From: Rhizophagus irregularis | Lineage: Eukaryota | DNA length: 64,000 bases | NCBI RefSeq assembly: GCF_026210795.1 | Contig: NC_089436.1 | Coordinates: forward strand, 1,550,001 to 1,614,000 | Reading direction: 5' to 3' | Shown: positions 1 to 56,015 of the stretch, piece by piece | Numbering within the stretch: position 1 is the first letter of the stretch | Layout: every line of letters begins with the position of its first letter | Notes under the pieces: generated by a model | What the model saw: the letters and a program-made list of their open reading frames with translations, nothing else | Databases searched by the model: none | Told to the model about the DNA's origin: nothing | Made by a program: the position numbers and the translations under genes

Positions 1-720
1 TTACACCTCCATTAGATATACGCAAGGTTTTTATTTCAGCAGGACGGATGCAGAGCATTATCGTTACATCGGCAAGGGCTTGTAAGCCAGGGGCTCTGGA
101 TACATCATATATATCCAATCTCTCCTTAACTGATTCTAACGAGAAGTGGTCCGGAAAATCGATCCCTTCATCTTCACATTGTTTACTACGCTCCTTTTGG
201 ATTTTATTAGCTGAGCGGGTTATGTCTGGAATCAATGTAGCTGAGATAATTTTTTCTGAGGCTTTGAGGTTTCGCAACTCTCTTCGAAGCCTAGAGATTC
301 GTGATAAGCCAGCGCTAGCATTAGAAGCAGATTCAGCTAAGGCTTTTGCTATACTTTAACTTCTACTTCACTAAGATTATCCCGAATGATACGCTGGGCC
401 AAATCTCTAATAGTCTCTTTCGGTGAAATTTGACATGTATTCACTGTGTCCGGTTCTACTTCTTGGGTGATATCGGGAGTATCAGGAGCATTGGGTAAGG
501 CTCCTCCTTTTTTCCGACCAGCTGTTAGCTTAGGAATTAATGTAAATACCTGTTCTTCGCTAAAGTTGTATCCTTTTTTGAGACGTCGTCGTGCCTGATC
601 CCTCTTAACTTTGTCCGTTAAAAGAATATCCAACGCCGGTGCGTGCTTACTTAGCTCTTCGATACTCATCTCGGTATTGAGCTCGTTTTCTGTTATATAT
701 CTAGTAGCGATGCCAGCCAT
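1..720 (-). CDS. Putative tyrosine-recombinase/protelomerase-like protein with one frameshift near 354; runs off the window start
   Basis: ATG at 720 (MAGIATRY...). The frame stops at 349, but the -1 frame reads on open to base 1: IAKALAESASNASAGLSRISRLRRELR...QALADVTIMLCIRPAEIKTLRISNGGV. The hydrophobic helix followed by R-x-x-E resembles box I of tyrosine recombinases and telomere resolvases. Confidence 0.5.
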
Positions 721-1134
721 GTTATTATTTGGTAATATGTAAGATATTTGGTTATACCTAGGTTGTTTGGTATATACTATGCGGAGAAAGTTCAATTCGA
801 AAAAAAATAAATAATTCTCCCTATCTAAGGACTGCGGGAGAGGGTCGGAGGGGTTTCGGATGAACAAAAAAAGAATATTATAACTTCTGCGGGCTCTCTA
901 TGAGGCCACGAACTCCAGCCGGAATAGCTTTTATATATATTTGAAAATTGCGGGTAGATAGGATATGCGAAAAAATAATAATAATTTGGGATTTTATATC
1001 GCCTAATTGTAAAGAACGAAAGTCCCATCCCTACTAATATTTCATAACCCACTCTTATTCGCTCTTTACCAAAGCATACCATTCTCTGCGCTTGCGCTGA
1101 ATATGCTTATATTTTTTGCCACTATTGGTCAAAC

Positions 1135-4100
1135 CTACCATAAGTAACCGTTCTCTTGGAGTATGCTAATACCTTTTTGCCACTCCTCATCATCATAAAC
1201 ATATGTCCGGGGCTTTCCCACATTCTCGAAGTTGCGGAGATATATTTCTTCACTTATTAATCTTTCCCTTCTAGACATCCAAAATATATCGTTTACGTCC
1301 ATACCGTCTGCTTTCGCAAAATCGACGGCATCTGCGTCCGACATCATCCTGTCTCGATATTCATGGAATAGTCTGATATCTTTTTCTGTGATGGTCACGA
1401 ATACGTCTGGGTCTTCACCATGATCGATAGCCCATTTCCTGAGGCGCTCTTCTCGCTCTTGTCTAGCCGGGGATGTGGAAGAAGCTTTTTTATTGCTAGG
1501 TTCGGGTTTATCTATTAGTGACTCAGGTGATTCGGAAGTCTTAGTACTCTCGGATGTCCCAGATGTTGAGGCGATTGGGGGTTCAGCTTTCTTATCTCTT
1601 GGAAGGAGATTCTCTTCTGGCTGGGGCGGGATTATTTTTGGAGGAATTATTTCTGGCATATTGAATATGGGTATGTCTGTGGCCTCGTTTGTGGGTAAGT
1701 CAGGTTGAGGTATGTCAGAAAATTCTTCGATATCACCTAAGCCAGATTCACGGAGCTTAGCTATGATCTTGGAGCGGTCAAGAATGTATTGCCATTCTCT
1801 TTTCCCACCACCTGTTTGCACTTGTTTGCTTTCAATACCAATTTCAGAAAACTTTTTTCCAGCAACTTTACTAGTCAATAGTTTTTCACCATTCTCTCCA
1901 CACCATTCAAGATACTTTTGATATAATGATGTACGACTTTGCGTGGATGTTCCACCCTCAGCCCTAGATGTAATATAGTCAATTATAAATCGAATGGGAC
2001 TAGGAAGCTGATCACGCATTGTATCTACTTTCATTTTTGTAGAAGGAATTTTTCCTGGTTTGAATTTCGATAAATCACGGCTAAGAAGGTATGACATGAC
2101 TACTCCTGGCGCATCAGGGTGGTCTAAAATTTCCCCCAGCTGATCAAAATATGGTATATTACCTCTACAGCGTGCCGAGACATCAAAACAAACTATACGA
2201 GAATCTCCTATATCTATTTTGAGCGGAGCATCCTGATTGCTTGTAACCATATACCCAGCAAAATCATTTAATCGCTTAAGTTCAAGACCCTTTCGCTCTA
2301 TAGATACTTTTCCTTCTGTTATGAGAGATTTAAGATGTCCATTAAATCTATGCCAATCACCATTAGACATACCTGTTTCATTCATGACAATAAGCTTTCG
2401 AGCTTGAATGGCGCTATTAAAACGCCCAAGAATTTTTTCTAAATCCGATGTTGCATAATGAAGATGTTGCCCCAAGACTTTGTCCCCAATAAAGTCAGTA
2501 ATAATATTTTTTCCGCACTGTTGTAGTGTGGATTTTAGTACTAAGATGGTTCGAGGCTTCTTCTGTGGCTTCTGTACTAAATATGCCCACCAGTTCCAGA
2601 TATACTCATTGAGTTCTTCGTTTCCATCACAAATTATGTTTAATACATGCCAGAGAATCGGATTCATAATTTCTTTATTAATTTCTGGCGCTGGTTTAGC
2701 CAAAAATCCTAAGAAAAGGTTAAAGAAATCCGTAACTGGCTGAGAAACATTTATGGGGTATGGAAGGAAATTATAATCTTCATAAACTATTAGACCTTTA
2801 ATAACTGCCTGGTCTATCAATGATTTTAACTTCACTGCTTCACCCCCATATTCGATTATTTTAATCTCAAACTTGGCAAGCTTTAGCTCGGCTCCCATAT
2901 CGAAGTAAAGCCCATTTTCTGGATCCTTATGTTTTAATATCCAGATCGGTATTTTCTTTTGAATATAGGCAATGGTTGATTGGATTGCTTCATAAACTTC
3001 AGCGCGGGAGAATTTCTTACCTGAAGTACACATATGTATTAAATCCCACCATACGAAATGGTCTTTTGGGTTTGAAATTCTAGATTGCTCTAATCTTACT
3101 GGAACTGGGAGTTTCTTTTCTCGCTCCAAAACCGTTTCGCTAATGGTAAGCTTTACTGAGGGATTCCTAGTTCCAGGTTCTCTTTCATGGTTTCCACGAT
3201 GGCAATAAAATCTATATGTTTTTTTATTTCGTAGGATATATGCATTATCACTTTCATGTTCCCGATTACATATTGGGCAGTGTGATGGAGAGTTGCGTAC
3301 TAATGGAAATAAGTCAGGGATGTTATCTGAAGGAAATGAGAGAGTGTAACCTTCAATAGAATTATCTCTAAGTAATGTTTCTATGAAATCGAATTCAGCC
3401 TGGTCATTTTCGATATCAGCATTAGTAATTTCATTTCCTTTGGTCGGGTATCTCTTAACTTCTGGCTCCGAAATAGTCAAAAGAGGACTATCAATGATTC
3501 TAGAATCATCGTTAGGCGGACGAATCATGAAGTCAAAGATAGTTCCATCTTTTGGGTATATAGCCTTTTTTATACGAACATGCTCCTCTTTTTTTTTATC
3601 GTATTTGGGCGTTCCAAGCATCCGCAAGGAGAAAGATTTGAAAGAACCTATATTTGCTATATTATCAATTATCCCTTTTTTCTGTAATCCCACTGGAAGT
3701 TTTTTACGAACAAGTTCGGTGAAAACTGAAACCTGAGCAATATTTTTAAGCCTCATGCCGAAAGTCAAGATATGGTATGACATTTTTTGGGTATCACTAC
3801 TACTAGCAATAGTTCTAGTTTTATTCTCCCATTCCGGAAATATCTCATGACACGTCTTTGTAAAAGCAAGAATAAGTGATTCTAATATCTCTTTGCCCGA
3901 GAGTTTAGGGTCAAGACTGTCATATACTTCTCGTCGCAAATCAAAGTCGATAATAGGCCGGAGTGGCTCATCTCCATCAATAATTTCGTGCAATGAATGG
4001 CCTTCACGTTCTAAGAGTATGGCTTCTATTCCATCCTCATTGTCTGCCCCTAGAAAATGCCTTGGTCTAACATTATTATCACGAATTTTATATTGGCATT

Positions 4101-4172
4101 GTCCTATATCGGAGGCTTTAAACCCACAATAGTACGGGGCGGGGCGTCTTCGAAGAAGTCGGATTGGGTCAT
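1135..4172 (-). CDS. AEP primase-polymerase + Zn ribbon + SF3 (D5-like) helicase + C-terminal winged helix
   Basis: Intronless ORF of about 1010 aa. AEP motifs RPIIDFD, SYH, IID...SLRMLG; Zn ribbon HCPICNREH...YCH; Walker A STLQQCGKN, Walker B LIVMNE, motif C VTSN, DSR; C-terminal LYQKYLEWCGENG. The likely ATG at 4172 is one base out of frame (see findings). Confidence 0.9.
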
Positions 4173-4292
4173 TTTTTTTTCTCAAGCAAGTTAAGATAAT
4201 TTATAGCTATACCAAAACTCAGGGTATATTATTCGCAAGAAAAAAGTTCAAAATGAAAATAATTCCCCAAGATTATTAATTGATATATATAA

Positions 4293-4592
4293 ATGGAAGG
4301 CGAAAAAAAGGAGACACGAGTTCTCAAAAAAGAACCACCATCCTGGAATTTTTATTATTGTCCATATATTCTTAGAACTGGAGAAGTATGTAATCGGAGA
4401 TGCTTTGATCCAAAGGGATGTAAAGTCCATCGGAATTCTAGGCAAGTTCTTTGCAAAGAATGTAGTGACCCGACAAGATCCAAATATGACTATTGCGATA
4501 CGCATGCAAAAAAACATAGATCGAAGGAACATTACCATCGGAAAAAGCTGGCTAAGCAAGCTGATGGTCCCAAAGAGATTCCGCTCAAGTAA
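4293..4592 (+). CDS. Small Cys/His-rich zinc-finger-like protein, divergent from the primase-helicase
   Basis: 99-aa ORF with ATG in A-rich context: CPYILRTGEVCNRRC...GCKVH...CKEC...YCDTH and a basic C-terminus. Confidence 0.6.
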   Translation: MEGEKKETRVLKKEPPSWNFYYCPYILRTGEVCNRRCFDPKGCKVHRNSRQVLCKECSDPTRSKYDYCDTHAKKHRSKEHYHRKKLAKQADGPKEIPLK

Positions 4593-4633
4593 TTTTAGGC
4601 TAATCGAGAGAACTTAAACAAGAATAAGAAGTT

Positions 4634-5150
4634 GTCACTATCCCTATGGCCTTTTGGACGAACCTACAATAAATTGTAGAATTTCTTGGTGACACTCTTG
4701 GTGATGCTCTCGGTGACAAAATTTATAGCTATTTCACATTTTTAGAGCCATCAGAAGGTTTCTAGATAGGTGTCACTATGACACTAAGAGTCACTAAGAA
4801 AAATCCGAGTTCCATAACTTTTTTTCATTTTTTTTTTTAGCATATATGTATCACGCATATGTTATATATGTATCATACTATATCGCATATAAGCCATAGG
4901 AGTAGCATAGAAAAAATTCAATTTTTTTTCCTAGAACTTTACTTTTTCTTAGTGACTCTTAGTGACTTAGTGACAAATATAAAAGAAGAGAACCGAGCGT
5001 CCCCAAACACCGAAAAAGGCATACAAGGGTGTCACTAAGAGCGTCACTAAGAGAGTCACTAACAAATTTTCTTGGTGACGGCATACATACAGGATGGATT
5101 CGATATTTTTTTTTCCTATAACTTTACTTTTACTAGGGACACTAGGGACG
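4634..5150. repeat. Iteron-like array of GTCAC(T/C)AAG units in alternating orientation
   Basis: Triplets at 4685-4717 (reverse), 4771-4800 (forward), 4948-4974 (reverse), 5031-5062 (forward); singles at 4634 and about 5071; degenerate CTAGGGAC pair at 5133-5149. Confidence 0.75.
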
Positions 5151-6199
5151 CTAAAAATCGGCATACACACTGCTTCGACCCAGAATAAACTATGATCGGG
5201 CCTCAGAAGTGCTTACAACATCCCGCCGATATACCTCGAAAACCTCAGAAGCATAATACCTCCGGCCTCACTCTTGGAGACAAATAGGTAGACGAAAGTA
5301 GAATTGAACTTAGCCAGCAATATTGTGTAAGCCATCTAGTGTGATTTGTTGTCCAGTTTCAGGATTTATGATTTGTACTTGTTTAGACATTTTTTTTTTT
5401 GCACAAATGCATATACATTGGGTTCTGGAAACATTCCCAGAACATTCCCGTTACTAGTCCGCAACTATGAAAGGGTGTTCGGTGCCGTAACAGGATCACG
5501 TGACCATGGCGCAGTAGGCGCAGTCAAAATTCGCTCCATAATTTCGGCCAGTACTATTCCACAATTTCGGCCAGATCTTTGAACATAATAACTCGGTACC
5601 CAAGCTGGCCTAAAACTGGCAAAATAATAGAACCTTTCTAGCTCCCTGCCAGTTCCATGACAGCTCCACAGAAGTTCCAGGACACTATCAAGTCACCATC
5701 ATGGTGCCAAGCTGGATCCTCGAATCACATGCCCAAAAGATCGGCCGAAATTATGGTATAGTGCCGGCCGAAATTAATCGCAGATCTACTGCGCCACCCG
5801 ACATGATATTTTTTACCATATTTTGGCATTTTGATGGATAACAAAATAGGTGAAGAAGGAAAGCACCCTCGAATCCTTAACAGGTAACCAAAGAGGTACA
5901 GAATGGCAGAAACTTCATCATAAAACTTGGGATCCAAACAATTGCAAACAAGCCGGACCTTCAACATAAAGTTTAACAACCAATCAACCTGTAATCCCAA
6001 TATCATAAATTATATTGGAAGCTGATTATTCGTGTATAGGATTAAATAAAAATAGGTACATTTCGATTATTTAGTAATAGTAATATTTAGGTTATTTAAT
6101 CACATGATCACAAATAATAAATGAAAAAAGCTAAAGAAAAGCGAATTCAAAGGAAAGGAATATAGTAAGAAAAATAACTAGATACAGAAAATTGTCACA

Positions 6200-6431
6200 A
6201 ACAGGTTATTTAGTTAGATTATTTAATCATATTTAGGTTATTAACTTTAGATTATTTAGATATATTTAATTTATTTAGATATATTTAGATTAATTAGTTA
6301 TATTTAGATTATTTAGTTATATTTAGATTATTTATAGTCATACTTAGATTATTTTATTACTAAATAATCTAGTCTAAGCCGTTTATGACTAAATAATATA
6401 ATTATATTATTTAGTCATAAATGGCTGCATA
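6200..6431. repeat. TTAGATTAT-type microrepeats ending in a 50-bp palindrome; probable terminus of another element abutting the hAT
   Basis: Repeated ttagattattta units. Palindrome at 6377-6426 with 24-bp arms, 1 mismatch and an AT centre. It ends ...GGCTGCATA, directly before the truncated hAT coding sequence. Confidence 0.6.
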
Positions 6432-7789
6432 CGACATCGTCAAGGAGAAGTTTGCGGAACGTTTATTAAAACGTGTTAATATTTTGACAACCTTTTTTAG
6501 AAGTTCTCATCAGGCTAATGCAAAACTTGCTCAAATAATTAAAGAAAAAGGAATTAGTGGAGGAGGATTAAAATTATATTGCAAGACACGCTGGACTACT
6601 GCTAGTGAATCCGTAAATTCAGTAATAAATTTGGAATCAGCACTAGAAGAAATGGCCAGCGATCACGATAAAGTGCTAACAAATGATAAAATAAAACCGA
6701 TTATTCAATCGAGAAATTTTTTTTCAAATTTACGAGTTCTTGGATTTGTTCTGGATCCTCTAAGAAAAGCGGTACTTTCATTAGAATCGAGAAGAGCTAC
6801 ACTTGCAGATTGTTTCCTGAGCTTGGCAAGACTTGCAGCTACATTAAAAAAGTTACCCAAATCATTAAATCCTGCATTTCGAAGTCATTGTATCAAAGTA
6901 ATAAATGAAAGATTTGATGAATTCGATGATGATAAGTATATTACTTGTTTTTTTATGGATCCCAGATTTAGAAACGCGCCACTTAAAAAATGCGCCCTCA
7001 TGAGAATTATCAAATGTGCAGCTTCAATCGGGAAAAATTTAGGTTTCGACCGTTACGAAGCTGAAACTTTATGTGATCAAATACAGAAATATATTAATGA
7101 GCAAGAGCCATTTGACCTAGATATCGGTTTTGCTAAAGATAATCCCATGAATTGGTGGAAATATATTAATACTGAACAGAACAGATGCCCCGCCTAAGAA
7201 TTGCAAGTTATCTATTTGCAATACGTCCTAACTCAGCAACTTGCGAACGTGGATTTTCGACTTTAGGATGGCTATTTCATAAACGTCGCTTAAATCTTAA
7301 TGTGGATAAACTAGAATCCATGTGCAAATTAATTTTGTATTGGAAATCCAATTCAAAAACTGAACTTGGATTTTATGGAATTGATCAAAAAAAGAATACT
7401 CGTCTTATGATGATGAGATCAATATACGTATTGCAGAAGCTTTTGCAGAAGATGACGATGAGGAATATAATGAGGAGCAAGCTTCTACTCAGAGATTAAC
7501 TACAAGCGGCGAAACAATACCTGAAGACAATTGCCGTGTAGTAATCGAAAGTCTATGGATTGATCAATTTGTTAATTTATCGCATGATTCAATTACTAGT
7601 GAAATCGGCGATATTCCAAGAGATATATTGGATGATTCAGATGAAAATAATGCGGAAGATGATGAAGTTGATGATAGTGGTAATAACAAGAGACCTGGAG
7701 AAGGTGACTATGATTATGATATAGATGATGTATTAGGTATGGATGACGGTGATAATAATGACGATAATTATGATGATAATGAGGAATAA
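6432..7789 (+). pseudogene. hAT-family transposase, 5'-truncated, two frameshifts (about 7185 and 7408)
   Basis: KTRWTT motif, FFMDPRF, NPMNWW, PNSATCERGFSTLG...RRLNL dimerisation region, acidic tail ending ...NEE* at 7789. Confidence 0.88.
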
Positions 7790-7964
7790 TAATAATGAGA
7801 AATAATTACAATAGTTAATCCAATGAGAATTAATTCTAATATCATGTGATTTAAATAATGATACTATTTAGGAAATAAATGATGTAATTATGCAGGGCAA
7901 AATATTCGCGATCAAAGTCCAGTTAACATATAATTATGCAGGCAATGCAGGCAATTGTAATTTT

Positions 7965-8120
7965 ATATTATATTTTAAAACATTGCAATTTAATTAAGGA
8001 ATAAGGATAAGCATATTATATTTTAAAAATAGTGCAATTTAATTAAGAAATAAGGATAAGCATATTATATTTTAAAAATAGTGCAATTTAATTAAGGAAT
8101 AAGGATAAGCATATTATATT
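7965..8120. repeat. Tandem repeat, about 49-bp unit x3
   Basis: aataaggataagcatattatattttaaaaatagtgcaatttaattaag repeated. Confidence 0.8.
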
Positions 8121-8458
8121 AGAATCAATAAGTTTTAAGGACTTCGTTAATTAAATTTATTACATTAGATTAATAAATTTTAAGAACTGCGTTACAAAAA
8201 AAAATTTAGAACTGCGTTAATTAAATTTATTACATTAGAATCAAAACTGTGTTTATTTTGTTACAAATACTTTAATTATGTAGAATGTTATTATGTTCAT
8301 CAGTTCATGTTTTAAACATTATAACGAATTTTAAAATTATTATAAATATTATGAAATTTGAATTTTTTTTTTGCAATTCAAAACCAAATTGTATTTTAAT
8401 TTTCAAATTGTATTTAATTTTCAAATTTCAAGTTACGAAAAAATCATAAAAATAAAAA

Positions 8459-9550
8459 ATGGCAGCATTAGTACCTTTTGTCCTACCGCCACCACCAGTA
8501 TTCCAATGGACGATTAACGCAACTAGGCAATTAATCGCGGAGCGGAGAAACTTACATCAGCAATTCGAAAGAATTGCAAACCGTCATCATGTAAATGCAT
8601 GGACAATAATAGCAAATAGGGTGTTCATTGCAACGGGATTTGCAGCGACACCCAGGCAATGCCAAACAAAATGGAATGCCCTCAAACGAGGTTATGAAAA
8701 CCTCAGTAGGATAATAAATAATAATGATGACGACATCTTTACAGAAACTTTAAGTTTTCAAGTGATATTATTTCGATATCATTTCAATATTATTTCAATA
8801 TCGATTTAATATCGATATGATATCGAAATAAAGTATTATCACTTCGATATCATTTCGATATTAAATCGATATTGAAATGATATCAAAATGATAATAGAAA
8901 TGATATCGAAACAACATCTTTAAGTTTAATTTAAAGATATCATTTCGATATCATTTTAATTATCATTTCGATATCATTTCAATATCAATCTAATATCGAA
9001 ATGATATCGAAGTGATAATACTTTATTTCGATATCATATTGATATTAAATCGATATTAAAATGATATCGAAATGATATCGAAATGATGCCGTTAAGATAA
9101 ACTTAACGATATCGATTCTATATTGATTAAAAATGGTAAGTTTCTGTAAAGATTCCTATTATAAGCCCAAATAGTTTCGATAGAGCGTGTTTTGCTGATA
9201 TGAACGATGAATTCTGGTTACAAACCGGTAATTATTATTAATTATTATTTTAAATTAATTTTATTTAGGCAATTCATTCAATTCATTAATATTTTTATTG
9301 GATTTTAGATCTGTTTAGACGAGAGTATCGACGGCAGCATGCTGCGCGTGATCGACGTCGATATGAATATAGATTGCGAAGGGAAAGAAGAAGGTCGCGA
9401 TCTAGGTCTCGATCAAGAAGTAGATCAAGAAGTAGAGATAGAAGACGAGATAGAAGTAGAGATAGAAGACGAGATAGAAGTAGAGATAGAAGACGGGACA
9501 GAAGTAGAGATAGAAGAAGAGGTAGAAGCAGGTCCCCACATAGAAGATAA
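8459..9550 (+). pseudogene. Myb/SANT-like (trihelix) DNA-binding protein with an RS/RD-rich tail, disrupted by a MITE
   Basis: WTINATRQLI...W...QCQTKWNALKRGY. Removing 8737-9153 restores DDIPIISPNSFDRACF...FWLQT. Intron 9228-9308 (GT..AG) leads to exon DLFRREY...RSRSRSRSRDRRRD...SPHRR*. Confidence 0.75.
8737..9151. mobile_element. MITE with TIR CTTTACAGAAACTT, AT flanks and internal GATATC repeats
   Basis: Perfect 14-bp TIRs; excision restores the host reading frame. Confidence 0.85.
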
Positions 9551-10539
9551 AGATATTATTAAATTTTAATTTTTATTATATTTTTAATCGTATATTTTAT
9601 TAGTTTAATATTAAATATTATAAAATAAATATTTACATACAAAAAATCATATTGTCTTTAATCTTTATTCTTATAAATTGTTTAAATGCCGAAACTCTAA
9701 TTAAATCATATAGAAAGTATTGCCGAAACGCCGAAACAGTTTCGGCAAGTTACGGCAGTTTCGCGATTTTGATAGGTTTCGCAGTTTCGGCATTTCTTGA
9801 TGATTTCGCGAAACTAGTTTCGGCAGTTTCGCGTACGCCATTCTGCCGAAACCCTCTAGTTTCGGCAAGCAACCTTAATAAAAGTATAGAATTATTCTCT
9901 TTCTTACAAAATAAATTATTTGTATTCTAACTATTTGATACTAACTATTTGATAAATATAAATAAATACTGCTATTAATGAATATATAAATATTATATTA
10001 TTTTATGATTATTACCTAAAATTTATGGTTATAAGATTTTTGCATGATACTGAATTACTGATTATTTATTTATTATTTACTTACTTACTTCTGATTTTTC
10101 TTACCCATTTTTTTCTTTTCTTTTTCTTTGTAAAATATTTGTTAAATAATAAAAAAATTTATATATAAATGTAAAATTGATAATAAGCATATTACTATAT
10201 TATAAAGATCTTACCTATTATTAAGATAAGGTATTTTATGATCTAAGGTAAAGTTTACATATAAAACTCTTTAAAAATCCTATTATAAAAGAAAATTTTA
10301 TATTACATTGTTATGATTTTTTCCTTTTTAATTAATTAACCAATAAAATTTAAGCAAATCCTAAAGTAGGATTTCATATAAAAGTGAAATTTTTACTGAT
10401 AATATATCTTAATAATAGATGGGATTCTGTATTAGTATACATTATATTTATTTTTTTATTTTATACATCGGGAAATTTTTTAAGATGCAGAACTGCAGAG
10501 ATCTGTAAAATTAGCAGATCTCCGCATTTTTTTTGTGAA

Positions 10540-10880
10540 TTTATGCTGAAGTCTGCGATTTTGCAGATTTCTGCTTTTTATTTATTACAAAATTATGCAA
10601 TAATCTGCAATTTTGCAAGTTTCTGATTTTTTATGTATGCATTTCTGCGGTAATCTGCGATTTTGCAGATTTCTGCTTTTATTTTTTACAAAATTATGCA
10701 ATAATCTGCAATTTTGCAAGTTTCTGATTTTTTATGTATGCATTTCTGCGGTAATCTGCGATTTTGCAGATTTCTGCTTTTATTTTTTACAAAATTATGC
10801 AATAATCTGCAATTTTGCAAGTTTCTGATTTTTTATGTATGTATTTCTGCGGTAATCTGCGATTTTACAGATTTCCGCTT
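10540..10880. repeat. Subterminal tandem repeat, 101-bp unit x about 3
   Basis: Identical units produce the duplicated short ORFs at 10613 and 10714. Confidence 0.85.
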
Positions 10881-11423
10881 TTATAACCACTATATTACTA
10901 ACTGAAGAAAACTCTGTACTAATACTAACTGACGAAAATTATGAGATAAATTGCTATTTTTTACAGTTTGTTTAATTGCTTTAATTTACTAGCAACCCGT
11001 AAAATATCTATGATATCCTACTATTAAAGACTCCCTCTTTTTGTCGATCTGAAAGGCTTTTCATAAAACTAGCGAAAAAAGCTAAAGTGGCGTTTTAAAT
11101 ATACTGTATGGATGATGAAACATCATTTTTCTTTTTTATTTTGAAGATTTAGAACATATATTTATTTAATAGAAAGCAATTTTCTTTGTTAAACCTTAGA
11201 ATTATATGAACCTCCTGATTGATAGATTTAACTGGAATAATGTTATATTCTTCAGTATAGTATAATTGGAAGTAACCATAGACTATAGGCTCTATTGGAT
11301 GAATGTCAAACCAACGAACAAGAGCAAGTTCGTATGGCTCTTTATATGATCCTCGAAAGAATTTTAAAAATAGCAATACCTTGAAAAGAAATAATTTGTA
11401 AAGAACTACAAAGTAAAATCGTA

Positions 11424-12384: not shown

Positions 12385-13191
12385 TACTTACAAATTTTTA
12401 AAGTTCACTTACTTTTCCGTACCAAGCACCTTCGTCTTGTCCTTGATCCTCCGCATGAGTTACTGTGACATTGCTAAACCATTCTTTTCCTTGAAATTCA
12501 CCCGTTGATCTTAGAATTTCTCCACTTTCTAGATGAACTGAATCATAAATTTTGATAAAAAAATCATTTTCTGAATCTTGCGAGGATGTGTCTAAAAAAG
12601 TATCCAACGCTGTAATTATTTGTGCCAATTCTTCAATATAATTTGGATGTGGCAGATTTTCAGATTTTTTTAAAGATTTTATTTTTTCATCAATGGAGTC
12701 TAGATTTAATTCCCAAAGAATTTTTCAAACCCTTCAGTTTTACAACGAATGACTTTCATGCCGCTGGTAGTTGGAGTTAATTCTTTACGCTTTACCTGCA
12801 AAAATATTAATAGTTTAGTATTTATGGTTGGAGAAAAGTTAAAAAAATCTTATAAAACTTTTACTAACAGCGTTCACCAGTTGTTGCATCACGTGTTTTC
12901 TATTTGTTGCTCGATATGGAATTTTAATATATAATTTATGGAGCATTTCGTAAGTCTCCGTTAATAGGCTATTCAGTACATTATATTTGACAATATAATG
13001 GCAGGTACTGAAATAATTAAATTAAATTAAAATTTGTATAAATTAATAGCCATCTTCAAATTATATTATCTGCATGATAACGCCAACTATGCAGCTTTGG
13101 AAAACTGTAATCCGTAGTAGATAATAGGGAGAATATCCTTTTAAACTCTATGCACCAATCAATGATTGCTTCCTATTTTAGTTAGTAGTTA

Positions 13192-13300
13192 CACAGGTCG
13201 AAAAGTGAAAAATCAGGCACCAATCGGTCACCAATCAGGTACCTGATTGGTGACCGATTGGTGACTGATTGATGCCTGATTTTTCACTTTTCGACCTGTG
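13192..13300. mobile_element. 109-bp foldback MITE with TTA target duplication
   Basis: CACAGGTCGAAAAGTGAAAAATCAGGCA...TGCCTGATTTTTCACTTTTCGACCTGTG, with TTA on both sides; intronic. Confidence 0.85.
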
Positions 13301-14499
13301 TTAGATCATCTATTAACTTTAAAGAAAGTTAATTTTTTTAAATTTTTTCTTCTTACTTCAAAGATATTCAGTTCATTTTCGGTATATGATTCTTGTCTGC
13401 TCATAGTATACATTTTATTAAACTTCGTGTAAAGTTCACAAAGTTCTTTACAAGTTATTTCATTTTCTTCGCTGAAAATTTCATCTAAAGCAAAAATCAC
13501 TATCTTCATAATATGACGATAGTCTGATGCTGTCATTACTTTTAGTTGACTTACTTTACTTAACAATTTAAGGCCTGAAAAACATGGAATTTGTCGAAGG
13601 CGTTCATCAAAAATCTTCTGTAATTCCAACCCTCTGACCTTTTTTAAGATTTCCTGCGTAAACTCCAGTTGATATTTAAAAAGTCTAAGGTCGATATAAT
13701 GCATACGGTCGGAAATGCATGCTTCGTAAATATTCAGATTTCTGTAAAAAAATTTATATATGTAAAAAAATTTTTACAACGTCGTCATTACTTATAAAAT
13801 TTAGTAATATTTACGGAAATTTCCAGAAGGCATTTTTGACGTAATGTACAGAATACTCCTTTCCTTGTTCAGCGCTAACCATTTTTTTCATATTTTCATG
13901 AGTTCTGGAAAGTATATCTTCTTGTGTAAGTTTCATATTGTTTAAGTTATTTTGCAGAACCATACAAGTATCATCGGTAATATTTTGAGAGTCGGGATCC
14001 ACGTGAAATCCTTATTTTCCATAAATAGTAAGGATTCGTATGGATCCTTCCCCACCTCAGCGGATCTTTGGAATTAAAAAGTTCAAGGGATCCTAAAGGG
14101 TTTGAAGTTTTAATTCAAAGATCTTTAAGGATTTAATATAATCGAATTTTTCACTTAATATCACTATATTAGTTATTATTTTACATTAATGCTTTATTGT
14201 AAATTATTATATATTATTAAATTATAGGTTATGATAATACATTTTTAACGCGCTATATTGACTTTTTTTTATGTACAAATTCTTTTTACACTGAAATTAC
14301 CGAAATTAAGCTGTACTATTCATATTTTCTATTATTTAGAAAATTAAAAATATATTCTGTTATTATTAATTTAAATTTGTTTGATTTTTCGATCATATGA
14401 TTACAAATACTTGTACGATGCACAAATCTTGAAATATGCTTTAAATTCACTATAAACAATAGTATAATTACAATTAGTATTTATAAATGTTATAAGATT

Positions 14500-16180
14500 A
14501 TTATCATTATTATAAATTAAAATAGAAGACTACCTTTATTCATCAATTGTTTGATCTTGATCGATATTGTAATTTTCGCCAAGTTCTTTATCGACTTGAT
14601 CATTCTCTTGATCTTCATCACGATCATCATAACGGTGGTCATCACTCTCGCTAGTATCATCTGAATTATCACATGTTTTACCTAATTCATCTTGTCTAAC
14701 TTGTTTGGTAATCTCGGATGTTATTTCTTTAAAATTATGGATACAATCTTATAAATAATATTATCAATATCTGCTTAACTAATGCATATTGCTATCAATC
14801 TCTTACATACCAGATATAAGTCAAATCGTTTATGGAGAGCATTATCACTAACAGATATTCGTGGATGTCTCAGATTTAAAACAATTTCACAAACTGCCAA
14901 TGTAAAAGCAGTATCCATCAATGTAGTCTTCTTTCTCTCCCATGCCTTTTTCTTAATTGCTTCAATATACGGAAGGGTACCATCATCATCACTTATAAAT
15001 AAACATTTAAACGCATTTTTGGTATTATTTGAATTTTTAAAAGTTGCAATATCTCCAGCTCCTGCAGAAGTATTAATTCGAGTTAAAAGATTTTCACCAA
15101 AGATGTCAAACATTGCAGATCGAACATCTTTGGCCTTATCACATCTTCTGCTTTTAATTACATCACGGCACTAAAGAGAACATTTAATATATTAGTTAAA
15201 GTATAATAATTTATACCAAAAATATTAATATTATAACTTACTAGAGGTCTGACACGTTCCAAATAAAAATGATTCCACTGTAGGCCAAGTTGTTCAATAT
15301 AACCTGGCTTTTCTTGTTCAAGTATACTTTCGAAGCCTTTCTTGAATTCTGAATCATCAGGATAAAGACCAAGAATAGGTAGTTGAGTTTTGCAAGTTTT
15401 TGACGCCAAGCTCTACAAAAATAAAATGAGTTTGTATATCAAATCCTTTGCTAAAAATTATTATTTAATAATTGCTCAAGTTTACCTTCCAATAGGAATC
15501 TTCAGGAGTAATTAATTGGTTAATTTTCTCTGAAATAATATTTAATTTTTCATTTGTTTCTTTTTGGAACGCGTCTTGCGAAGCCTTCATTTCATATATT
15601 GCTTCATATATATGCTTATTTTGGCCCAAACTCCTCTTTAGACCCTCAATCATGTGCGAATAAAATGTCTTAGTAGTATCGGCTGAAAAAAGACCAAATC
15701 AATATTATATGATAAATAATTAATAATTAATATCATAAATTCGAATACTTGGAGCATTTTCCATCGATCTCAAAGTATTCATATTAGATGATGCATCAGC
15801 TAGTGCAGCTAATGCTTCTTCTCTGTCCTCATCACGCATCTCCTGTTCTTGTATTTGTGAAAGATTACAAGAATCTTCAAAATTACGCACTCCTCTGGAT
15901 TGTGAACTTGACGCAACAAGTTCAACATTTGCATCTTGTCGTTTTCGTTGAGTTGAGGATTTAATAGACCTTGCTGCAGCTAAACGAGCAGCAATTTTAT
16001 CTGCTTCACTCGTTGCTGTCTTAGAATTAGTTATATTAGAAGAATTTTTGCGTCTCGAGATTCTTTGATTAACTATATTAAATAAAAACAAACAAAAATG
16101 TTTTCTTAATAACGGTAATATTAAGGCTTAACCATAGTGCCATGCTAAATAAAAAAATATTTACCTTTTTCTTTAGGCAT
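14500..16180 (-). CDS. Multi-exon accessory gene of Plavaka element 2, unknown function; end approximate
   Basis: ATG at 16180 (MPKEK|intron). Exons match ORF-track pieces 15720-16091, 15465-15653, 15158-15409 and 14775-15113; acidic C-terminus. Similar to the gene at 21888-23684. Confidence 0.6.
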
Positions 16181-16391
16181 GTCAGAAAATTCTAAGCGAA
16201 TTTATTGAAACTTAAAAAGTAGAAGTTTAAGTTACTTTAAACTCCAAATATAATACGAACAAATTATTATCAAAAATGGTAATTACCCATATGGTGATTA
16301 AGATCTGATCAAAAATGGATCAAAAAATATTTTTTTTTAAACTGTTACCAAAGTTATATAATTATTTTTTTAACGTGTAATTATTATAATT

Positions 16392-19300
16392 ATGTATCAA
16401 TGTAACTTTTGTAAACGTTGTTTTTCACGAAAACAAGACCTGACCCAATATTGTCACCAGCTTCACACATATACCAACTATTCTCGTACATTAAATTGGG
16501 TTCAGGATCAACAATCAAGTTCTAATAATAATATACGGCAAAAAACTATTGATAATAATGTTTGGAATGAAATTGAAGGTTTAGATATTTTTTTACAAAT
16601 AACAAGTGCTGACGACAAACAAAATAATGAGGTAATTTTCATAATTCTTTCAAATCATTGTAAATTAATTGCTAATTATTAACTGATTTGTTAAGAAATC
16701 AGATTTGAACAATACAGCAGATGCACCTATGGCCTTCAATAAATATGAAAATGATGATTATACAGATGATGAATATCATGAAATTACCCGATCGCGAGAA
16801 AGTAAAAGCATCTCTTCTACAGCATCAAGCGAAGATTTTTGTGGTGTGAGTTTAGCTGATGCGTATAAAGACTTGAATAACAATCCAGAACAAACATTAT
16901 GGCCTAGTGAAACGTACAAAGAATTTATGATGGCTGTAACACAATATCGTCTTTCTGACGCAGCCGCTGATTCTATGTTACGTATACTAAAAAAACATTG
17001 TACTGATCAACTTCCTGGATCTACTAGGAAAGGGCGTACATTTATTGACAATATGGATGTTAAAGGTTTACAATTTAAAGAAAAAGAACTCATTATATTT
17101 GAAGAAGAAATTTATAAATTACATTATAGGCCAATTTATGATGCAATAAAAAGTTTGGTTTCGAATTCTGATTTGACTAAAGATTTTCTTTTCGATTATG
17201 ATGAACAATGGGAATATGGTCTTGTAAGTATTTTTATAATGTATATATTGATGTATTATATTTTAAAAGATTAATAATAATTTTATTCTAGAATGGATCA
17301 CTCGTACGTGTTTATTCTGAACAGAATACAGCAGACTGATGGCGTGAAAGATATAATTCATTTAGCAAAATTTTATCAGTTATGATTTATATTGATGGAA
17401 CTACTCTTGATACTCTTGGGCGAAAATCTGAGTATCCTATTTTCTTAACCCTTGGAAATATTCCAAATTTACATTGCAACTTACCTGATGCAAAAGTTTT
17501 TATCGGATTTTTACCTCATTTAACTACGCGAGATAATAAATTGCGAAATTCAAAGGAATTTAAGCAGAAGCAACGGGATTTGAAGCATCGTGCTTTGAAA
17601 TATTTATTAGGTCCACTTCTTAAGGAGGATGGTATATACTTAGCAGTAAATGGAAAAGTTGAGCACTTTACCATTTATTTGTCTAGTATAATTGCAGATA
17701 TGCTAGAAGCACAGGATATTTGTTGTACTTACAAGTCATATCGTACACGATGTCCTTGCTATAAATGTCTTATGCCCGGTGATCAATTAAATAATATGAA
17801 TATTAAACAGGATATGATAGATTTACGTAATCATGAAAACATGCAAGAAGCTATTGCTTCTCACAATGCAGAAAATTATTCCATTCACGAATATGATAAT
17901 TTTTTCTGGAATTTTAGGTATTAATTTATTTGAATTTATTTGACGATTCCTTTTTTTTTGATTTAATTTAAAATTATAATTTTTTTAATTTTTTTAGAAT
18001 AATGAACATATATGATGCAGCAGCACTAGATCATATGCATTTACAAGAAATCGGATTATTTCCATATATGCTTGATTATACAAGAGGTATGCTCATGCAT
18101 CAGTATGGAAAACAAATAATCAGTAAAATGGACAATCGACTGGCTACTATTACACGATTTAATAATTTAAGAATATTAAAAAAAGGTTATCAACAAGGTA
18201 CAAAATTTACGGGAGGTGAAATGCGAGATGTTATGAAGATTATTGTATTTGTTCTTGATGAGCTGTACACAACAGATAATAAAATCAATAACTAAACAGA
18301 TAGTAATTTATATACTATTGCTTCATGTAAAAATCTTATTATATGTTACATTAAATTTATTAAGATGTATATTACGTCACGAAAAAAGAAATTTAATGAA
18401 GATGATTTAAAAATCTTTGAAGTATGATTATTTCTTTACATAATAATAGTATAATATTACAAATAATTTTTTTACTAATTTGCTTTTTAATATAGCGTGA
18501 AATAATAGATTGGTCTAATGATTTTGTAAATATATTTGCGCAATTCTCCTCTAGTGGACTTCAGTTACCAAAGCTTCATATGTGGAGATATCATACTATT
18601 CATACCATTCGGCGATATGGTGCATTAAATGGGCTGACAACTGAGACGTACAAAACGCTTCACAAAAATTGGATTAAAAATCCATATAGAATGTCTAATA
18701 AAAAGAATACACATAATCAAATGTTAAAGACGGTATGTTATAATGCAATTTTCAGCCAAATAAATGTAAAAGATTTTTTTAACAATTTAAATATATTATT
18801 AGATTCGACGACAAATAATTACAAATACCATTACGAAAAAAACTATAAGTTTGAAACTAAATTCTATGAAATCACTCCTTTGGGAATTGCCAATAAGTGA
18901 AATATATACTTTTCAAGAAAAGCTTAAGCATGAAGAAAATATAAATGAATTGTGTATTGAAGGAATGGAACATTTAATTGCTTGTTTAGATATATACTTA
19001 GATGATATATCTAATGCATCAGCAAATGAAGAAATTTATTTGAAGATTTATGCTAACGGAACACTGTCAAATGGAGAAATCGTATATGCAACAAGTAAAT
19101 TTCATGGTTACGCAAGATTTAGTGACGTTGCAATTGCAATGGGTGATACAGATTACTTAACTGACGGTGGATTATGTTATGGCAAGGCAAGTATTTATAT
19201 AATTTATTTTAACTAAAACTAAACACTATTTAATATTTTTATTTATTTTACAGGTATTAATGTTAATTGAAGTTTCGTTCCTTCCTAATCATCCTTATTT

Positions 19301-19487
19301 ATCTCTTGCTTTAGTACATTGGTATAATTACTATTCTAAATGATATCCCATAATGTATGAATGTCCCCATATGAAATTTGTAAATTATTATGATTTAATA
19401 CCATTTGAATCCATTGCAGGTTTAGTGCATATGGTAAACCGGTTTGATTTTAATAATGAATTTTTCGTAAATAAGTTTATTTTTTGA
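16392..19487 (+). pseudogene. Multi-exon Plavaka-family transposase of element 2
   Basis: MYQCNFCKRCF C2H2-like start; WPSETYKEFM; HYRPIYDAI; IYIDGTTLDTLG...YPIFLTLGNIP; IIADMLE; CPCYKC; DHMHLQEIGLF; PKLHMWRYH; RFSDVAI; NKFIF*. Stops at 17338, 18293 and 19341. Confidence 0.9.
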
Positions 19488-21469
19488 AAATATATATAGT
19501 AAATAGTAGTATCCAATATAATATATAACATTTAATAATAAAGTAATTATAATATTAATAATATTAACAATAATATTCATATTAAATTAATTGAAAAATT
19601 TTTAAAAAAATCCTTAGAGTTTTTTTTTTAAGGATCTTTAAAGAATCTGACAATTAATAAATTCCTAAAAGATCCTTAAAAATTAGTAAAGAATTTTTAG
19701 GATTCCATGAATTTGCGAATCTTTAGGGATTCTATAGAAAATTATGGAATCCTTGTGGATCCTGTTCCAAAAAATATTACTGATGATAGCATGGCATTTT
19801 ACATCGCGCTCCTTTATATGTAACAGTCACATCATCTGCTTTGAGCATATCCGCAAGAAAAAAAGAAATTTGTGCAGCAAATGTTTTTGCTTGTCCATTA
19901 ATCCCAAAACATAACGTATTAGGTTTCTCCAGTAAAGGCCAAAGCATGATATTAAAGCATTTGTGAAATATTTCACGCTGCAAACTTCAAAAGACTTCGG
20001 TAATTTTAATGCCTGAATCTTGAACTTTAGGCAAAAAACCTAAAAGTATTTTAGATTCTAGTAGGTTTCAAACCCAATTTGGAACATTTCTAAGCGTTAA
20101 AAATACTGGATGGCCTGATGTCTTGCCCAGTCCATCGAAAGTGGTTCTATTCAAATATAAGATGATAGACAATAGGTGATTTAATAGCGGAAGAATCTTT
20201 TCCGTTTCCAGCCACCAGTCACCTTCATATGGCTCACCAAACACTCTTATTTCGCTTCCATCATCCTAAGAATATAAACAACCAAAAATCTGAGTGATGA
20301 TCTTTAGTTTTTTTTAGTCATTCATAATTATTAAATTTACCCTTTTTTTCTTTAGAATTCCCTTATAGACAAAATTATTAGCTACTTCTGGTCGTTGCAG
20401 AAGAGCTTGAATAGCGCGAAATATGGGACAATAGTAGAATGTAATGTCAATACTGCTGTAGGTTGAAACAACTTTTTCTTTGAAGTCTAATGAAGTGAAG
20501 TTATTTGATTGAGATGGTCTTTGCCATTTTTGGTTGATTTCGGTAATGGAGATTCTTCCAGATTGCTATATTTATTAAAGAATTTAATTATTTGATCTCC
20601 AATTTTATTAGATATATTACCCTCTACAATTAATCTCATGAAATCTCTGTATGCATCATTTGGCCACTTTGCTACGCATTCTGGTAAATTTTTTCCTTCA
20701 ATAGCATCTAAAGCATCATCTAACGATGCTCCTTGAAGATCTTCAGGATCTAGATCAATATTGTCGAGATTTACTGGTATTTCTGTTCCCAACTCCTCAA
20801 AATTTTCTTCAAAAATTTCTTCAGCTCTCTCTTCTATATTTTCTGTTTTTGATCTTTTTCGCAGATTATAATGTGGTTTAGATTCTAAATTGTCTGCATC
20901 TTGAGTTGGAATTTCATTGATTATTATATCCTACATCTCACCAATATTATCATTTTGGTATGTGGATTTTTCATGCAAAGTAAATGTATCTGGCATTGTA
21001 ATAGGTGTGTTCCATAACTGAACATCATGTTCTAGCATAACCGCTGTTCTTGATAATTGTCGCGAGAATCTTTGAACGTGTTCACTTGGTTCACTTGGTT
21101 GAGAAGTTGTTGTTCTTTTATGGTATTTGGCATTAGCGTGCTGTCTCAAACCGCTGGGAGTTGAAAAATATCTTTTGCAAATTTAACATTTATATCTGAC
21201 CATTTTTCTTTAAAAATCAATGCGAGTTTAGAAATTAATGCAGGAAAATTTTTTCAATTAGTTTCACGCGAGAAATATTTATGAAGATTTACTTTTGGTA
21301 TATTTTTTTTTTACTGATTATCAAGCGAATATAAATTTTATTACTGATAATTGATTATTTTTGTTTACTAAAAGATAATTAATTTATTTACTGATTAGTA
21401 ATTAATTTTTTTCATTTACTGATATTTTTAATTCAGGAGTAACTGATTTTTTTACCAATTCATTAACAA

Positions 21470-24903: not shown

Positions 24904-25926
24904 TAAAGCTCCGCATGAGCCGATCCGGCTCACGAGCTGGCTCGAGCTTTTCAATCTGGCCAAAGCTGAGCCACAATTAAATTGGCTCAGTGGCTCGCGA
25001 CCAAGCGAAATGAGCTCGAGCGGTGATAGGCTCGGCTCAAAAGCTCAAGCCAAGTAATAGGCTCGGCTCAAAAAGCTCGAGCTGGCTTGAGTTATCATAC
25101 AAAAAACGTTGCGAAAACGTTTTTTGTATAATATTATATTAAAAAAAACGTTTCGCAACGTTTTTTTAATTCTTTAATAAAAAACGTTGCAAAAACGTTT
25201 TTTTAATTCTTTAATAAAAAAACGTTGCAAAAACGTTTTTTTAATTCTTTAATAAAAAACGTTGCAAAAACGTTTTTCACTATATTATATTGGAAAAAAA
25301 CGTTTCGCACGTTTTTTTAATTCTTTAAGTAAAAACGTTGCAAAAACGTTTTTTCACTATATTATTTTAGAAAAAAATGTTTTGCAACATTTTTTTAAAT
25401 TCTTTAGTAAAAAAACGTTGCGAAAACGTTTTTTTCACTATCTAATATTAGAAAAAAATGTTTCGCAACATTTTTTTAAGTTCTTTTAATAAAAAACGCT
25501 TGCGCGCTTTTTTCACTATATTATTTTAGAAAAAACGTTTCGCAACGCTTTTTTAAATTCTTTAATAAAAAAACATTGCGAAAACGTTTTTTCACAATAT
25601 TATATTAGAAAAAAACATTTCGCAACATTTTTTAAAGTTCTTTAATAAAAAAACGTTGCGAAAACGTTTTTTTCACTATATTATTTTAGAAAAAAACGTT
25701 TCGCAACGTTTTTTTTAATTCTTTAATAAAAAAACGTTGCAAAACGTTTTTCTGAAGATAAAGCTCGAGCCTGGCTTGGCTCGAGCCATGAAAATCATCT
25801 GGTTTCATTCCGCTTTAGCTGAGCTGAAATTTTTATGGCACGACATCATTCCAGGCCAGAATTTTTTTCGAGCTGAGCCGACCAGACTTGTGCTTAAGGC
25901 TCCAAACCGGCTCATGCGGAGCTTTA
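24904..25926. mobile_element. hAT-type MITE with a perfect 8-bp TSD
   Basis: TIR TAAAGCTCCGCATGAGCCG / CGGCTCATGCGGAGCTTTA; TSD GTTTTGCG at 24896-24903 and 25927-25934; GGCTC/GAGC subterminal repeats. Confidence 0.9.
25096..25757. repeat. AAAACGTTGCGAAAACGTTTT array, probably a further nested MITE
   Basis: Many palindromic AACGTT units, weak terminal inverted similarity and AT flanks; interrupts the GAGC-rich hAT MITE. Confidence 0.6.
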
Positions 25927-41859: not shown

Positions 41860-42780
41860 CCAGCGCATGCTTCCACGGGATATGAACAGGGATCTATTGA
41901 TGAAAATGGAAGACTGAGATCACGGCAATTGTGTCGAAATGAACGCGTAGCTCCTCCTATCACTGTGGAGGCTATATCGTCCTACAGCATTAACAATCTC
42001 ATTGAAATCAGAGTGCCAGAGACACCGTCAGAGAGTGAAAAAGGTTTCGTTTGAAGCATCAATGGTAGGTTTTACAACAACCAAATAAGGGATAGTGAGA
42101 AACTGACAGATGTTCAACTCAAAGAACCAGCGCATATTTCTGAATAGGAATCTGTTGATGAATGTAGAACCCTGGGTTATGGCAACTGTGCAGAAATCAA
42201 TGCGGTACTTCAGATACTCCCGTGGAAGGAAGATCTTCCCATAAGGATGCGCACAATTTTAACAGAAATCAACAAATGAGGGAGTCATGCAAGAATTGTT
42301 GGCTGATGATGCAATACAATGCGAACACACGCTTCTTAACTTGCTGAAAAGTAAATATCCATTCCGTGAAGAAACAAACCAAAATATTCTGTATGATTAT
42401 GAAATTCGTAGACTTGCTGACTTTTATAATATTACTGATTTTTATCCTGTTCTGGCATGTTATGATATAATTTTTCTGGTTAAAAGGCCTTGATGGTGCC
42501 ATCTACATGTGGTCTCGTACAGATGAATCGATGATATTTGGAGGACATAATTTGAAAGAGGCTCTGGAAAATTATCTTTTCATCAAGAAAATCTTTGCTA
42601 CATTTAAGATTACATCCATGAACTTATACAATGAAAAAAAAAGCTGATAAGTGGTACGAAAAGAATGAAAAAACTAGTGACCGATGAGTTACTAAAGTCG
42701 ATAAAATTAAATAAAAAAGAAAGGGTCAAAAAAAGGCGAGAAACAAAAGAAGCGGCAAAACAAGAATAAAAGAAACATTA
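41860..42780 (+). pseudogene. Degraded gene(s): duplicated GNC(A/V)E segment followed by a SUKH/US22-like region
   Basis: Two related segments near 41860-41975 and 42125-42230, then LKSKYPF...DGAIYMWSRTDESMIFGGHNLKEALENYLFH; frameshifts and stops. Confidence 0.35.
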
Positions 42781-43859
42781 ATGCAGAAATTATTACCATT
42801 TATTTTATATAGTCGTTTATAGTGTTCGCTTTATTTAGTTTTCTTTTAATTAATTCTTTTAATTAATGTATCTGAGAATAATAAAGATATATGCGAATTT
42901 AACTTACATTTGCTAAATATGGCGAAAATTTTATGTAATATACATATTAGCAGCGATCCTTAAGAAAAATTGAATGAAATATATGACATGCTTTCAAGGG
43001 AGGGAGTACGCGTATCCTAGACCATTTAATACGAGTCCCTGCGCCATGTTAAATCGTATTACTATCTACTACTGCTACTATTATTATCGCAAACAAACCG
43101 ATGTCTTCCTTGGTGTCCTTTGGTGTCGATATTGTGGCGAGACTAAGGCCAATCTCATTTGCGTAGGATGCGTAGGAGATTTATTGCTTTTTTCCTCCTG
43201 TGATCGAAAATGGCCACGAACTCGTGCCAGTACATTTCAATCTTTTCAATGTAAACAGAGCGATGTCTTATGGATACGAACTTGCGGAGGAAAGTCGGTC
43301 GGAACTTGGAACCGGCTAGAAAAGAATATAAAATCCCGCTTTCTCCTGTACCCAAGAATTTGTGTAATAAAAGTTCGATACGATATTGCGCCAGATACCG
43401 AGAATTCGACGTATGAAGCAGAAGCAGAAAACAGTAGAATGTGCAACTGAAACACGTGTATTTATTTTCTCAGCAAATATCAGTAACACATCCGCTTTGT
43501 ACAGCCGAATTGTTTTCTGGTATCTGTTCCAAGGACAGTAGCTTGATCGTGACATTTTGTTGTTCACGCACACGTGATTTTTTTTATTTGATTTAACTTG
43601 ATAGTCGTAGTAATTTGAAATTAATCACTTTTGGTAATAAAAAATTTTATTAATACATGCGAAAAATAAATATAAAGGTTTAGGACTTGCCCGAGATACA
43701 TGACGTCTATGCTAATGTCTAATGTATAACCCTACAATCTAACTAACCACCTGACATTTACGTGACCTGGAAATTCACCCCGCCTTCTTTACGAAATGTC
43801 TATTAAATACACATTTATTAATGATAAGAAACTAGGATTACAGGAAATCGTAATACGGG

Positions 43860-55504: not shown

Positions 55505-55985
55505 TAGACCCCTACACTAATTTACCGGATTTCATGAAATTTACTTAGTAATATATAGTAAAATTGATGATTTTTGCGCTGCATAAAAGTTTATGAATTT
55601 TTAATAAAATTCAGCCAGAATTTTTTTTTTAAAAAGCCAATCAATTATAATTGTTAAGTATTAAAACAAAAAAGAAAAATTTTTAAAATATAAAAAAATT
55701 TTCTCATTGCAAAGTATAAGCAATAATTTTTCTATATGTTTTTTTCATTTTTACATATAAAATTATCTCATCCATTACTTTACAAATAAATATTTCTTTG
55801 CATTTTAAAATAGAATATTTCTGATTACATTTTTAAAAACTATAATCAATTGGCTTTCAAATAAAAAAAATTTGGCCAAATTTTATTGCGAACTCGTAAA
55901 TTTTTATGCAGCCCGAAAATCATCAATTTTACTATATATTACTAAGTAAATTTCATGAAATCTGGTAAATTAGTGTAGGGGTCTG
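55505..55985. mobile_element. MITE with long (about 120-bp) TIRs and TA flanks
   Basis: AGACCCCTACACTAATTTACC... and ...GGTAAATTAGTGTAGGGGTCTG are inverted copies. Confidence 0.85.
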
Positions 55986-56015
55986 TATAATTAAATAAAT
56001 AATATTATACAAATA

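Follow-up and report, generated by a model that had tools for sequence, protein, structure and literature searches.

A 64,000-nucleotide stretch of the Rhizophagus irregularis genome (assembly GCF_026210795.1, contig NC_089436.1, positions 1,550,001 to 1,614,000 of the forward strand; here the window) opens with a compact group of genes, and raises the question of whether these belong to the fungus or to an element able to move and copy itself. The group occupies positions 1-5160 and is richer in GC than the remainder, as an earlier interpretation of the DNA letters by themselves (the sequence-only reading) had stated: 36-43% over 1-6000 compared with 26.5% over 6427-64000. It comprises a primase-helicase of AEP/SF3 type, a co-oriented second gene (gene 2), a divergent Zn-finger open reading frame (ORF) and a 390-bp symmetric repeat array. 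To its right lie 58 kb of low-GC DNA, host and transposon by inspection; its left side is beyond the window edge, with the 3' part of gene 2 and the left flank outside the data. The named closest homologs of both large proteins are from R. irregularis and other Glomeromycota. The best explanation, to which we assign a probability of about 0.5, is that the block is a frameshifted copy of a module repeated in Glomeromycota, and that it probably represents the central part of a mobile replicon, lacking a capsid, that came from an asfarvirus-like giant virus and uses a protelomerase-type enzyme. It draws on gene content, linkage in independent copies, a catalytic set kept across the family, purifying selection, the large number of dead copies and variable cargo. 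The block contains the following features.

1-720, minus strand: 5' two-thirds of the protelomerase-family gene (gene 2), residues 1-246 of about 387, frameshift near 353-355
721-1134: spacer between helicase and protelomerase genes, with the TTTTTTCGAATTGAAC block ahead of gene 2, conserved in the window and nine loci
1135-4172, minus strand: AEP/SF3 primase-helicase gene, with its ATG at 4172 in another frame and a frameshift near 4140-4143
3937-3951, minus strand: DFD of the AEP primase part (C962R/UL52-like), by motif placement
3199-3279, minus strand: CxxC/H/C Zn finger of the primase-helicase, by motif placement
2506-2523, minus strand: SF3 Walker A-like QQCGKN, by motif placement
2377-2391, minus strand: SF3 motif B, by motif placement
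2236-2247, minus strand: SF3 motif C, by motif placement
about 1780-1960, minus strand: winged helix of the primase-helicase, by motif placement
4293-4592, plus strand: divergent Cys/His-rich Zn-finger ORF, 99 aa, with homologs recurring beside the protelomerase gene in other copies
4680-5068: imperfect dyad, 390 bp, axis about 4874, with four GTCACYAAGA(G) clusters in alternating orientation and an AT-rich core
5062-5160: further degenerate repeat units; sequence common to other copies thins out at about 5155-5160

Gene 2 starts at 720(-), in the same orientation as the helicase, and leaves the window after residue 246. Its motif CIRPAE is the tyrosine-recombinase-like R-x-x-E to which the sequence-only reading had drawn attention, and the catalytic arginine codon (44-46) is the sole member of the catalytic set inside the window. 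Searches of gene 2 against Pfam, PHROG, NCBIfam and PDB sequences, and by tblastn against phages, gave no match, and no Pfam match to a DUF3504- or DUF3435-type recombinase was seen in the 28 and 14 family members examined. With the last 118 residues as query, 272 homologs were recovered among 1028 candidates; among the 120 listed, all named ones were from Glomeromycota and one was labelled 'integrase: PROVISIONAL'. A profile search matched 532 clusters (150 listed). The fold was examined in an intact homolog, P0006, modelled from 74 sequences with a pLDDT of 86. When the P0006 model was compared with the PDB by Foldseek, the top six matches were TelA chains (best E 3e-4), with Cre behind. Re-ranking of the Foldseek matches by VIA gave Z scores of 14.0 for TelA (root-mean-square deviation 5.4, 268 aligned), 12.9 for TelK and 9.0 for ResT, against 8.0 or less for integrases (lambda integrase 8.0, Cre about 7). 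The best viral structure match was the EhV86 telomere resolvase, and the nearest named Atlas clusters were ResT and FirrV-1-B51, PF16684. Across 74 aligned homologs the catalytic residues were conserved at R226 in 62 (4 gaps), K251 in 66 (6 gaps), R322 in 60 (3 gaps), H351 in 63 (9 gaps) and Y363 in 56 (16 gaps). It is concluded from the predicted structure that gene 2 encodes a diverged protelomerase-fold enzyme, a tyrosine-recombinase fold of the protelomerase branch, and its product may form hairpins. Known protelomerases come from bacteria, from phages and from a small number of algal giant viruses.

The sequence-only reading had made its case depend on this fold and on the genes lying together in other copies. 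A metagenome scan yielded 137 relatives of gene 2, of which 80 loci were retained, and in 10 of the 80 the helicase C-terminus lay directly upstream of gene 2 in the same orientation (nine of the ten are distinct; identity is 67-89% except in one near-identical pair). Where at least 450 bp of upstream sequence was present (22 loci), the neighbor on that side was the helicase in nine, a Zn-finger gene in three and a 2-cysteine-adaptor gene in six, with none recognised in four. Homologs of the helicase and gene 2 also carry the consecutive tags RhiirA4_477441 and RhiirA4_477442, and fused helicase-protelomerase gene models account for 10 of 317 proteins. The conserved TTTTTTCGAATTGAAC block in the spacer may represent a promoter. 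In two loci (L033 and, by inspection, L005) a primase and a UL9-like helicase stand in place of the SF3 enzyme, with a Zn-finger gene between. This subfamily, in which the primase is fused to a UL9-like origin-binding helicase (PF02399), was located at L033:1026-3650 and L005:3-851. Downstream of gene 2 a coiled-coil ORF was present in 26 of 48 loci, and beyond it lay F-box/leucine-rich-repeat genes (six), aspartic-protease-like genes (six) or RING genes.

Only 8 of 28 full-length loci were intact. In 27 pairs among these eight copies dN/dS ranged from 0.11 to 0.34, dS being saturated in several, and the gene 2 family is evolving under purifying selection. Purifying selection together with many broken copies and linkage is the pattern of a mobile family with a long-term function and many dead members. 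The window copy is itself probably dead because both large genes are frameshifted, a point that the sequence-only reading overlooked; its proposal that the block is part of a mobile element rather than a set of host genes is thus supported by linkage and fold, although for a copy broken in both enzymes and of nucleocytoviral rather than P4 or N15 affinity.

That affinity is evident in the primase-helicase, which had been recognized correctly as an AEP-SF3 fusion. The frame at 1135-4185(-) is open for 1016 codons and matches DUF5906 in Pfam (E 1e-18, above cut-off) and, below cut-off, Pox_D5 (E 0.003), as well as PHROG primases and the PDB primase entry 6k9c. Its first 345 aa group with AEP_C962R clusters of the ESM Atlas (score 0.98), and the Atlas neighbors of this N-terminus are AEP_C962R and herpes UL52 clusters, mostly nucleocytoviral. 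An AEP domain, Zn finger, SF3 ATPase and winged helix are found in one chain, as expected for a D5/C962R-type enzyme; the roles of the AEP, Zn-finger, Walker A/B/C and winged-helix motifs are assigned as in the AEP and SF3 families. The long ORF does not share the frame of the ATG at 4172, and its first in-frame Met follows AEP motif I. Homolog P0122 aligns over residues 1-10 in the frame of ATG-4172 and from residue 10 in the other frame, and the gene is therefore frameshifted near 4140-4143. A contig from run X2 is identical to 4018-4367 with no difference or gap, so that an assembly error can be discounted as the cause of the shift, provided that X2 is not itself the source sample. Taken together, the primase-helicase and gene 2 indicate a nucleocytoviral (Asfuvirales-like) relationship, and not one with P4 or N15.

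Further indications of origin came from outside the fungi. Six distant gene 2 homologs lie on environmental contigs, and a seventh, L081 (32% to P0006), has ankyrin and Zn-finger genes around it on a virus-like contig of 70% GC, which belongs to a bacterial metagenome-assembled genome (MAG; G001) labelled Elusimicrobiota. This MAG contains a capsid gene most similar to p72 of African swine fever virus (ASFV; E 1e-127) and PolB (family-B polymerase) pieces 36% identical to Gigaspora PolB, on contigs similar in GC to that of L081. A D5-type helicase profile found no match in the MAG, where only a weak DUF5906 frame was seen. A tree of 20 rows placed the 13 labelled fungal, of which five carry that label by likeness alone, together on one side of a branch (98/97). 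As a separate observation, the MAG (L081-L084) contains contigs of an asfarvirus-like giant virus, with p72-like capsid, PolB and protelomerase-family genes, and one frame in it resembles a myristoylated virion membrane protein, with no database match.

Such a context is also what would be seen if the block were debris. A true asfarvirus-like giant virus would then have integrated repeatedly and left scattered remnants (or segments duplicated from those insertions), selection would have acted in the virus, and the module would never have replicated itself in the fungus. The nearest outside homolog in a giant-virus setting, the C962R-like primase, the exchange of the SF3 enzyme for a primase with a UL9-like helicase and the predominance of broken copies all fit this explanation. 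So does the 1.5-Mb asfarvirus-related insertion described for one strain in the parts of PMC10640383 considered here, which count 15-33 PolB copies of asfarvirus-like type in each R. irregularis genome and interpret the dispersed genes as repeated infection. The same parts report no capsid, A32 or D5 gene in five R. irregularis strains, which argues against debris, as do the compactness of the block beside 58 kb of low-GC host and transposon DNA and the neighbors of gene 2, a small recurring set rather than core viral genes. We regard debris as rather unlikely. On the mobile-replicon reading the block shares with that insertion and the dispersed PolB copies the host, an asfarvirus-like ancestry and, in the loci inspected, the lack of a capsid gene, but differs in having a D5-type primase-helicase, which was not detected there, and in its telomere-type enzyme; recombinase, integrase and telomere enzyme go unmentioned in those parts. 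The capsid gene that the sequence-only reading suggested looking for was not found: no major capsid protein was recognised in the window or in 19 loci with inspected ORFs, the loci being short, and in the same set no A32 packaging ATPase was recognised apart from an ATPase-like fragment in L078 that has no Pfam support.

Alternatively, the block could be the replication and integration end of a Polinton-like virus (PLV) or Maverick, with the protelomerase-fold protein as an ordinary integrase acting on the array. In the passages of PMC11296320 considered, PLVs associated with entomopoxviruses carry an end module of inverted repeat, primase-helicase and tyrosine recombinase that resembles the fungal module in gene order and primase-helicase type, and its authors noted abundant R. 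irregularis homologs of the primase-helicase, which may be the proteins studied here. Mavericks are expanded in Glomerales according to passages of PMC11952901, and the packaging-ATPase-like and RVE-integrase-like frames of L078 could be read in the same sense. These frames, at L078:9363-11018, resemble a Polinton-type packaging ATPase and an RVE integrase and lie 8-10 kb downstream of a protelomerase-family gene; they were recognized by eye, with no Pfam support. The fungal recombinase, however, is protelomerase-like, with a fold far nearer to protelomerases than to integrases, and the entomopoxvirus recombinase ranked only 25th among the viral structures matched by the P0006 model. No capsid gene or module was seen in the loci inspected, and scans of IMG/VR proteins, together with one motif scan, found no relative. 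A PLV or Maverick origin is judged unlikely.

The array adjoining the Zn-finger ORF bears on both the mobile-replicon reading and the weakest alternative. The ORF itself, at 4293-4592(+), agrees with the divergent Cys-rich frame reported earlier and has no Pfam family above cut-off. The short-repeat array was also real: GTCACYAAGAG occurs 12 times in the window, where 0.48 occurrences would be expected, and 10 of the 12 fall in 4683-5079. It proved, though, to be a dyad of inverted clusters and not a simple tandem run. Its symmetry is 66% over 395 nt (E 2e-10; z -8.4 relative to 100 shuffled sequences), and pairing reaches 82-83% in the motif clusters, compared with 47-50% in the spacers and 59% in the core, the pattern that protein-binding sites placed symmetrically about an AT-rich center would give. 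The dyad at 4680-5068 is, on its sequence, a candidate replication origin in which the repeats would act as iterons. Over the array, summed family depth is close to the value for the genes and lower than for a neighboring miniature inverted-repeat transposable element (MITE), and it falls at 5161-5375 in all four runs, suggesting, without proof, that array and genes move together and that the sequence held in common stops near 5160, a candidate right boundary. That the block consists of genes the host has domesticated, or of unrelated repeats clustered by chance, and that the array is a separate MITE, is very improbable and for the genes largely refuted, since order and spacer are conserved across nine distinct loci, many copies are broken and the array has the depth of the genes, even though MITE-like dyads are frequent in the window and the array alone could be one.

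Two candidates near this boundary were rejected. A short frame after a poly-A run at 5313-5390(-), with an NPETG motif, resembled the 2-cysteine-adaptor gene and a possible cargo remnant, but was missed by a three-sequence profile. A 50-bp palindrome at 6377-6426 was considered as a telomere site and discarded, since it forms the end of another repeat, one that breaks into a hAT-like gene and is also seen next to different flanking sequence. This near-perfect palindrome stops exactly where a high-copy hAT-like transposase frame (6426-10900) is cut; intact hAT copies have different sequence ahead of 6426, and one contig pairs the palindromic end with another flank.

If the mobile-replicon reading is correct, an intact element would leave the chromosome in circular or linear form. 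The primase-helicase would load on the symmetric array through its winged helix and start two forks, to be extended by an element-borne viral PolB or by a host polymerase. The protelomerase might then cut the replicated end junction and reseal it as hairpin telomeres, the mechanism of phage N15 and one that has been proposed for phaeoviruses. Re-entry into chromosomes could follow by the reverse, telomere-fusion reaction or by host end-joining, and decay would ensue. The window copy would depend on enzymes supplied in trans.

Several results count against this reading. No sequence-level match was found between the gene 2 family and PF16684 or a phage protelomerase profile, and the family profile compared with six phage protelomerases was not significant (probability 0.15%); in that non-significant alignment the R, K, R and H of the family are in register with GRR, AKK, DSR and GH of TelN, with Y offset. 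The link to PolB is supported by one gene model only, a primase start fused to a family-B polymerase in 1 of 317 proteins. In the MAG the capsid gene and L081 are on different contigs. The array motif is absent from all 80 loci, most of which lack that end, and a control count gave 16 dyad regions in the window; with dyads so frequent, the one at the array is not special. No telRL-like palindrome was found in 1-5400, with the left flank outside the window; the longest perfect arm, 8 bp, is a poly-A/T tract, and the perfect arm of the dyad core is 4 bp compared with 11 bp in N15 telRL, where symmetry is 52/56. Element ends and target-site footprints were not found. Excess coverage and fold-back joints, proposed earlier as a check, were not seen either: contig depth over the element, which is not a copy number, was 43-57 in X1, 107-162 in X3 and 41-70 in X8, where a nearby low-depth contig had 29, 77 and 43, respectively; the neighboring hAT-like repeat exceeded 1000. 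This ratio of about 1-2x gives no sign of an amplified episome, and no strand-switch joint inside the element was among the joints listed, both results being from contigs only. One polyA run with the same species label, strain not stated, had a depth below 0.6 over 1-5200, from which no conclusion on expression is drawn.

The 16 dyad regions include 5539-5776, 8710-9123, 13191-13301, 25098-25761, 46857-47174 and 55370-56000; several of the 16 are built from short inverted motif arrays, and they are probably non-autonomous repeats. Elsewhere in the window, 13300-20930 holds broken frames with a motif reminiscent of Plavaka-type transposases. The GC-richer stretch at 42100-45500 contains broken kinase-like and Crinkler-like frames (by eye) unrelated to the element, and the raised GC at 43-45 kb does not mark a second element copy.

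Comparison with known systems indicates resemblance only, and the fungal module is not shown to be a member of the N15, phaeovirus or PLV class. Like phage N15 (TelN, the RepA primase-helicase and telRL), it has a protelomerase-fold enzyme and a fused replication protein lying no more than a few kb apart; unlike N15 it is eukaryotic, nuclear, chromosome-integrated and multi-copy, has an AEP/SF3 enzyme of nucleocytovirus type and, in the part seen, lacks a telRL-like palindrome, partition genes and virion genes. Phaeovirus endogenous viral elements (Ectocarpus elements, EsV-1 and FirrV-1) are likewise integrated viral DNA with a telomere resolvase, and passages of PMC13236599 propose N15-like linearisation for the resolvase-bearing viruses. 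In contrast to the fungal module, which is small and high-copy and in which the protelomerase-type gene is the only such enzyme seen, these are complete viruses of 350-400 kb with a capsid and a separate tyrosine-recombinase integrase. Cryptons, Glomhopper and Starships are also dispersed fungal elements with a tyrosine-recombinase-fold enzyme, and Starships share with the module a variable cargo. They differ in lacking a primase-helicase, and the gene 2 family has no Pfam match to their recombinases; the terms telomer, primase and helicase are absent from the Glomhopper paper.

No description of a protelomerase in mycorrhizal fungi was found in the literature covered, which included passages of 10.64898/2026.06.19.733378, PMC7805220, PMC5294986, PMC13465315, PMC11952901 and PMC13533422; subscription papers, Repbase and curated repeat libraries were outside its scope, and the supplements of PMC10640383 and PMC11952901 may list such loci. 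Tentatively, and with less confidence than for the replicon itself, the module could represent an undescribed class of nuclear mobile element in mycorrhizal fungi: a giant-virus-derived, capsid-less, hairpin-ended linear plasmid in which the protelomerase is the sole recombinase for both resolution and integration, with F-box, RING and protease genes as cargo, and which would be the source of the 15-33 orphan PolB copies per Rhizophagus genome. If true, a replication strategy like that of N15 would operate inside a eukaryotic nucleus, through a diverged, Pfam-invisible protelomerase family that has hundreds of Glomeromycota homologs and is tied to a primase-helicase. It would provide a testable account of the capsid-less viral PolB copies and of part of the unclassified repeat fraction in these genomes, would illustrate one way in which a giant virus becomes a transposon-like element, and may offer a candidate self-replicating vector for fungi that are difficult to transform.

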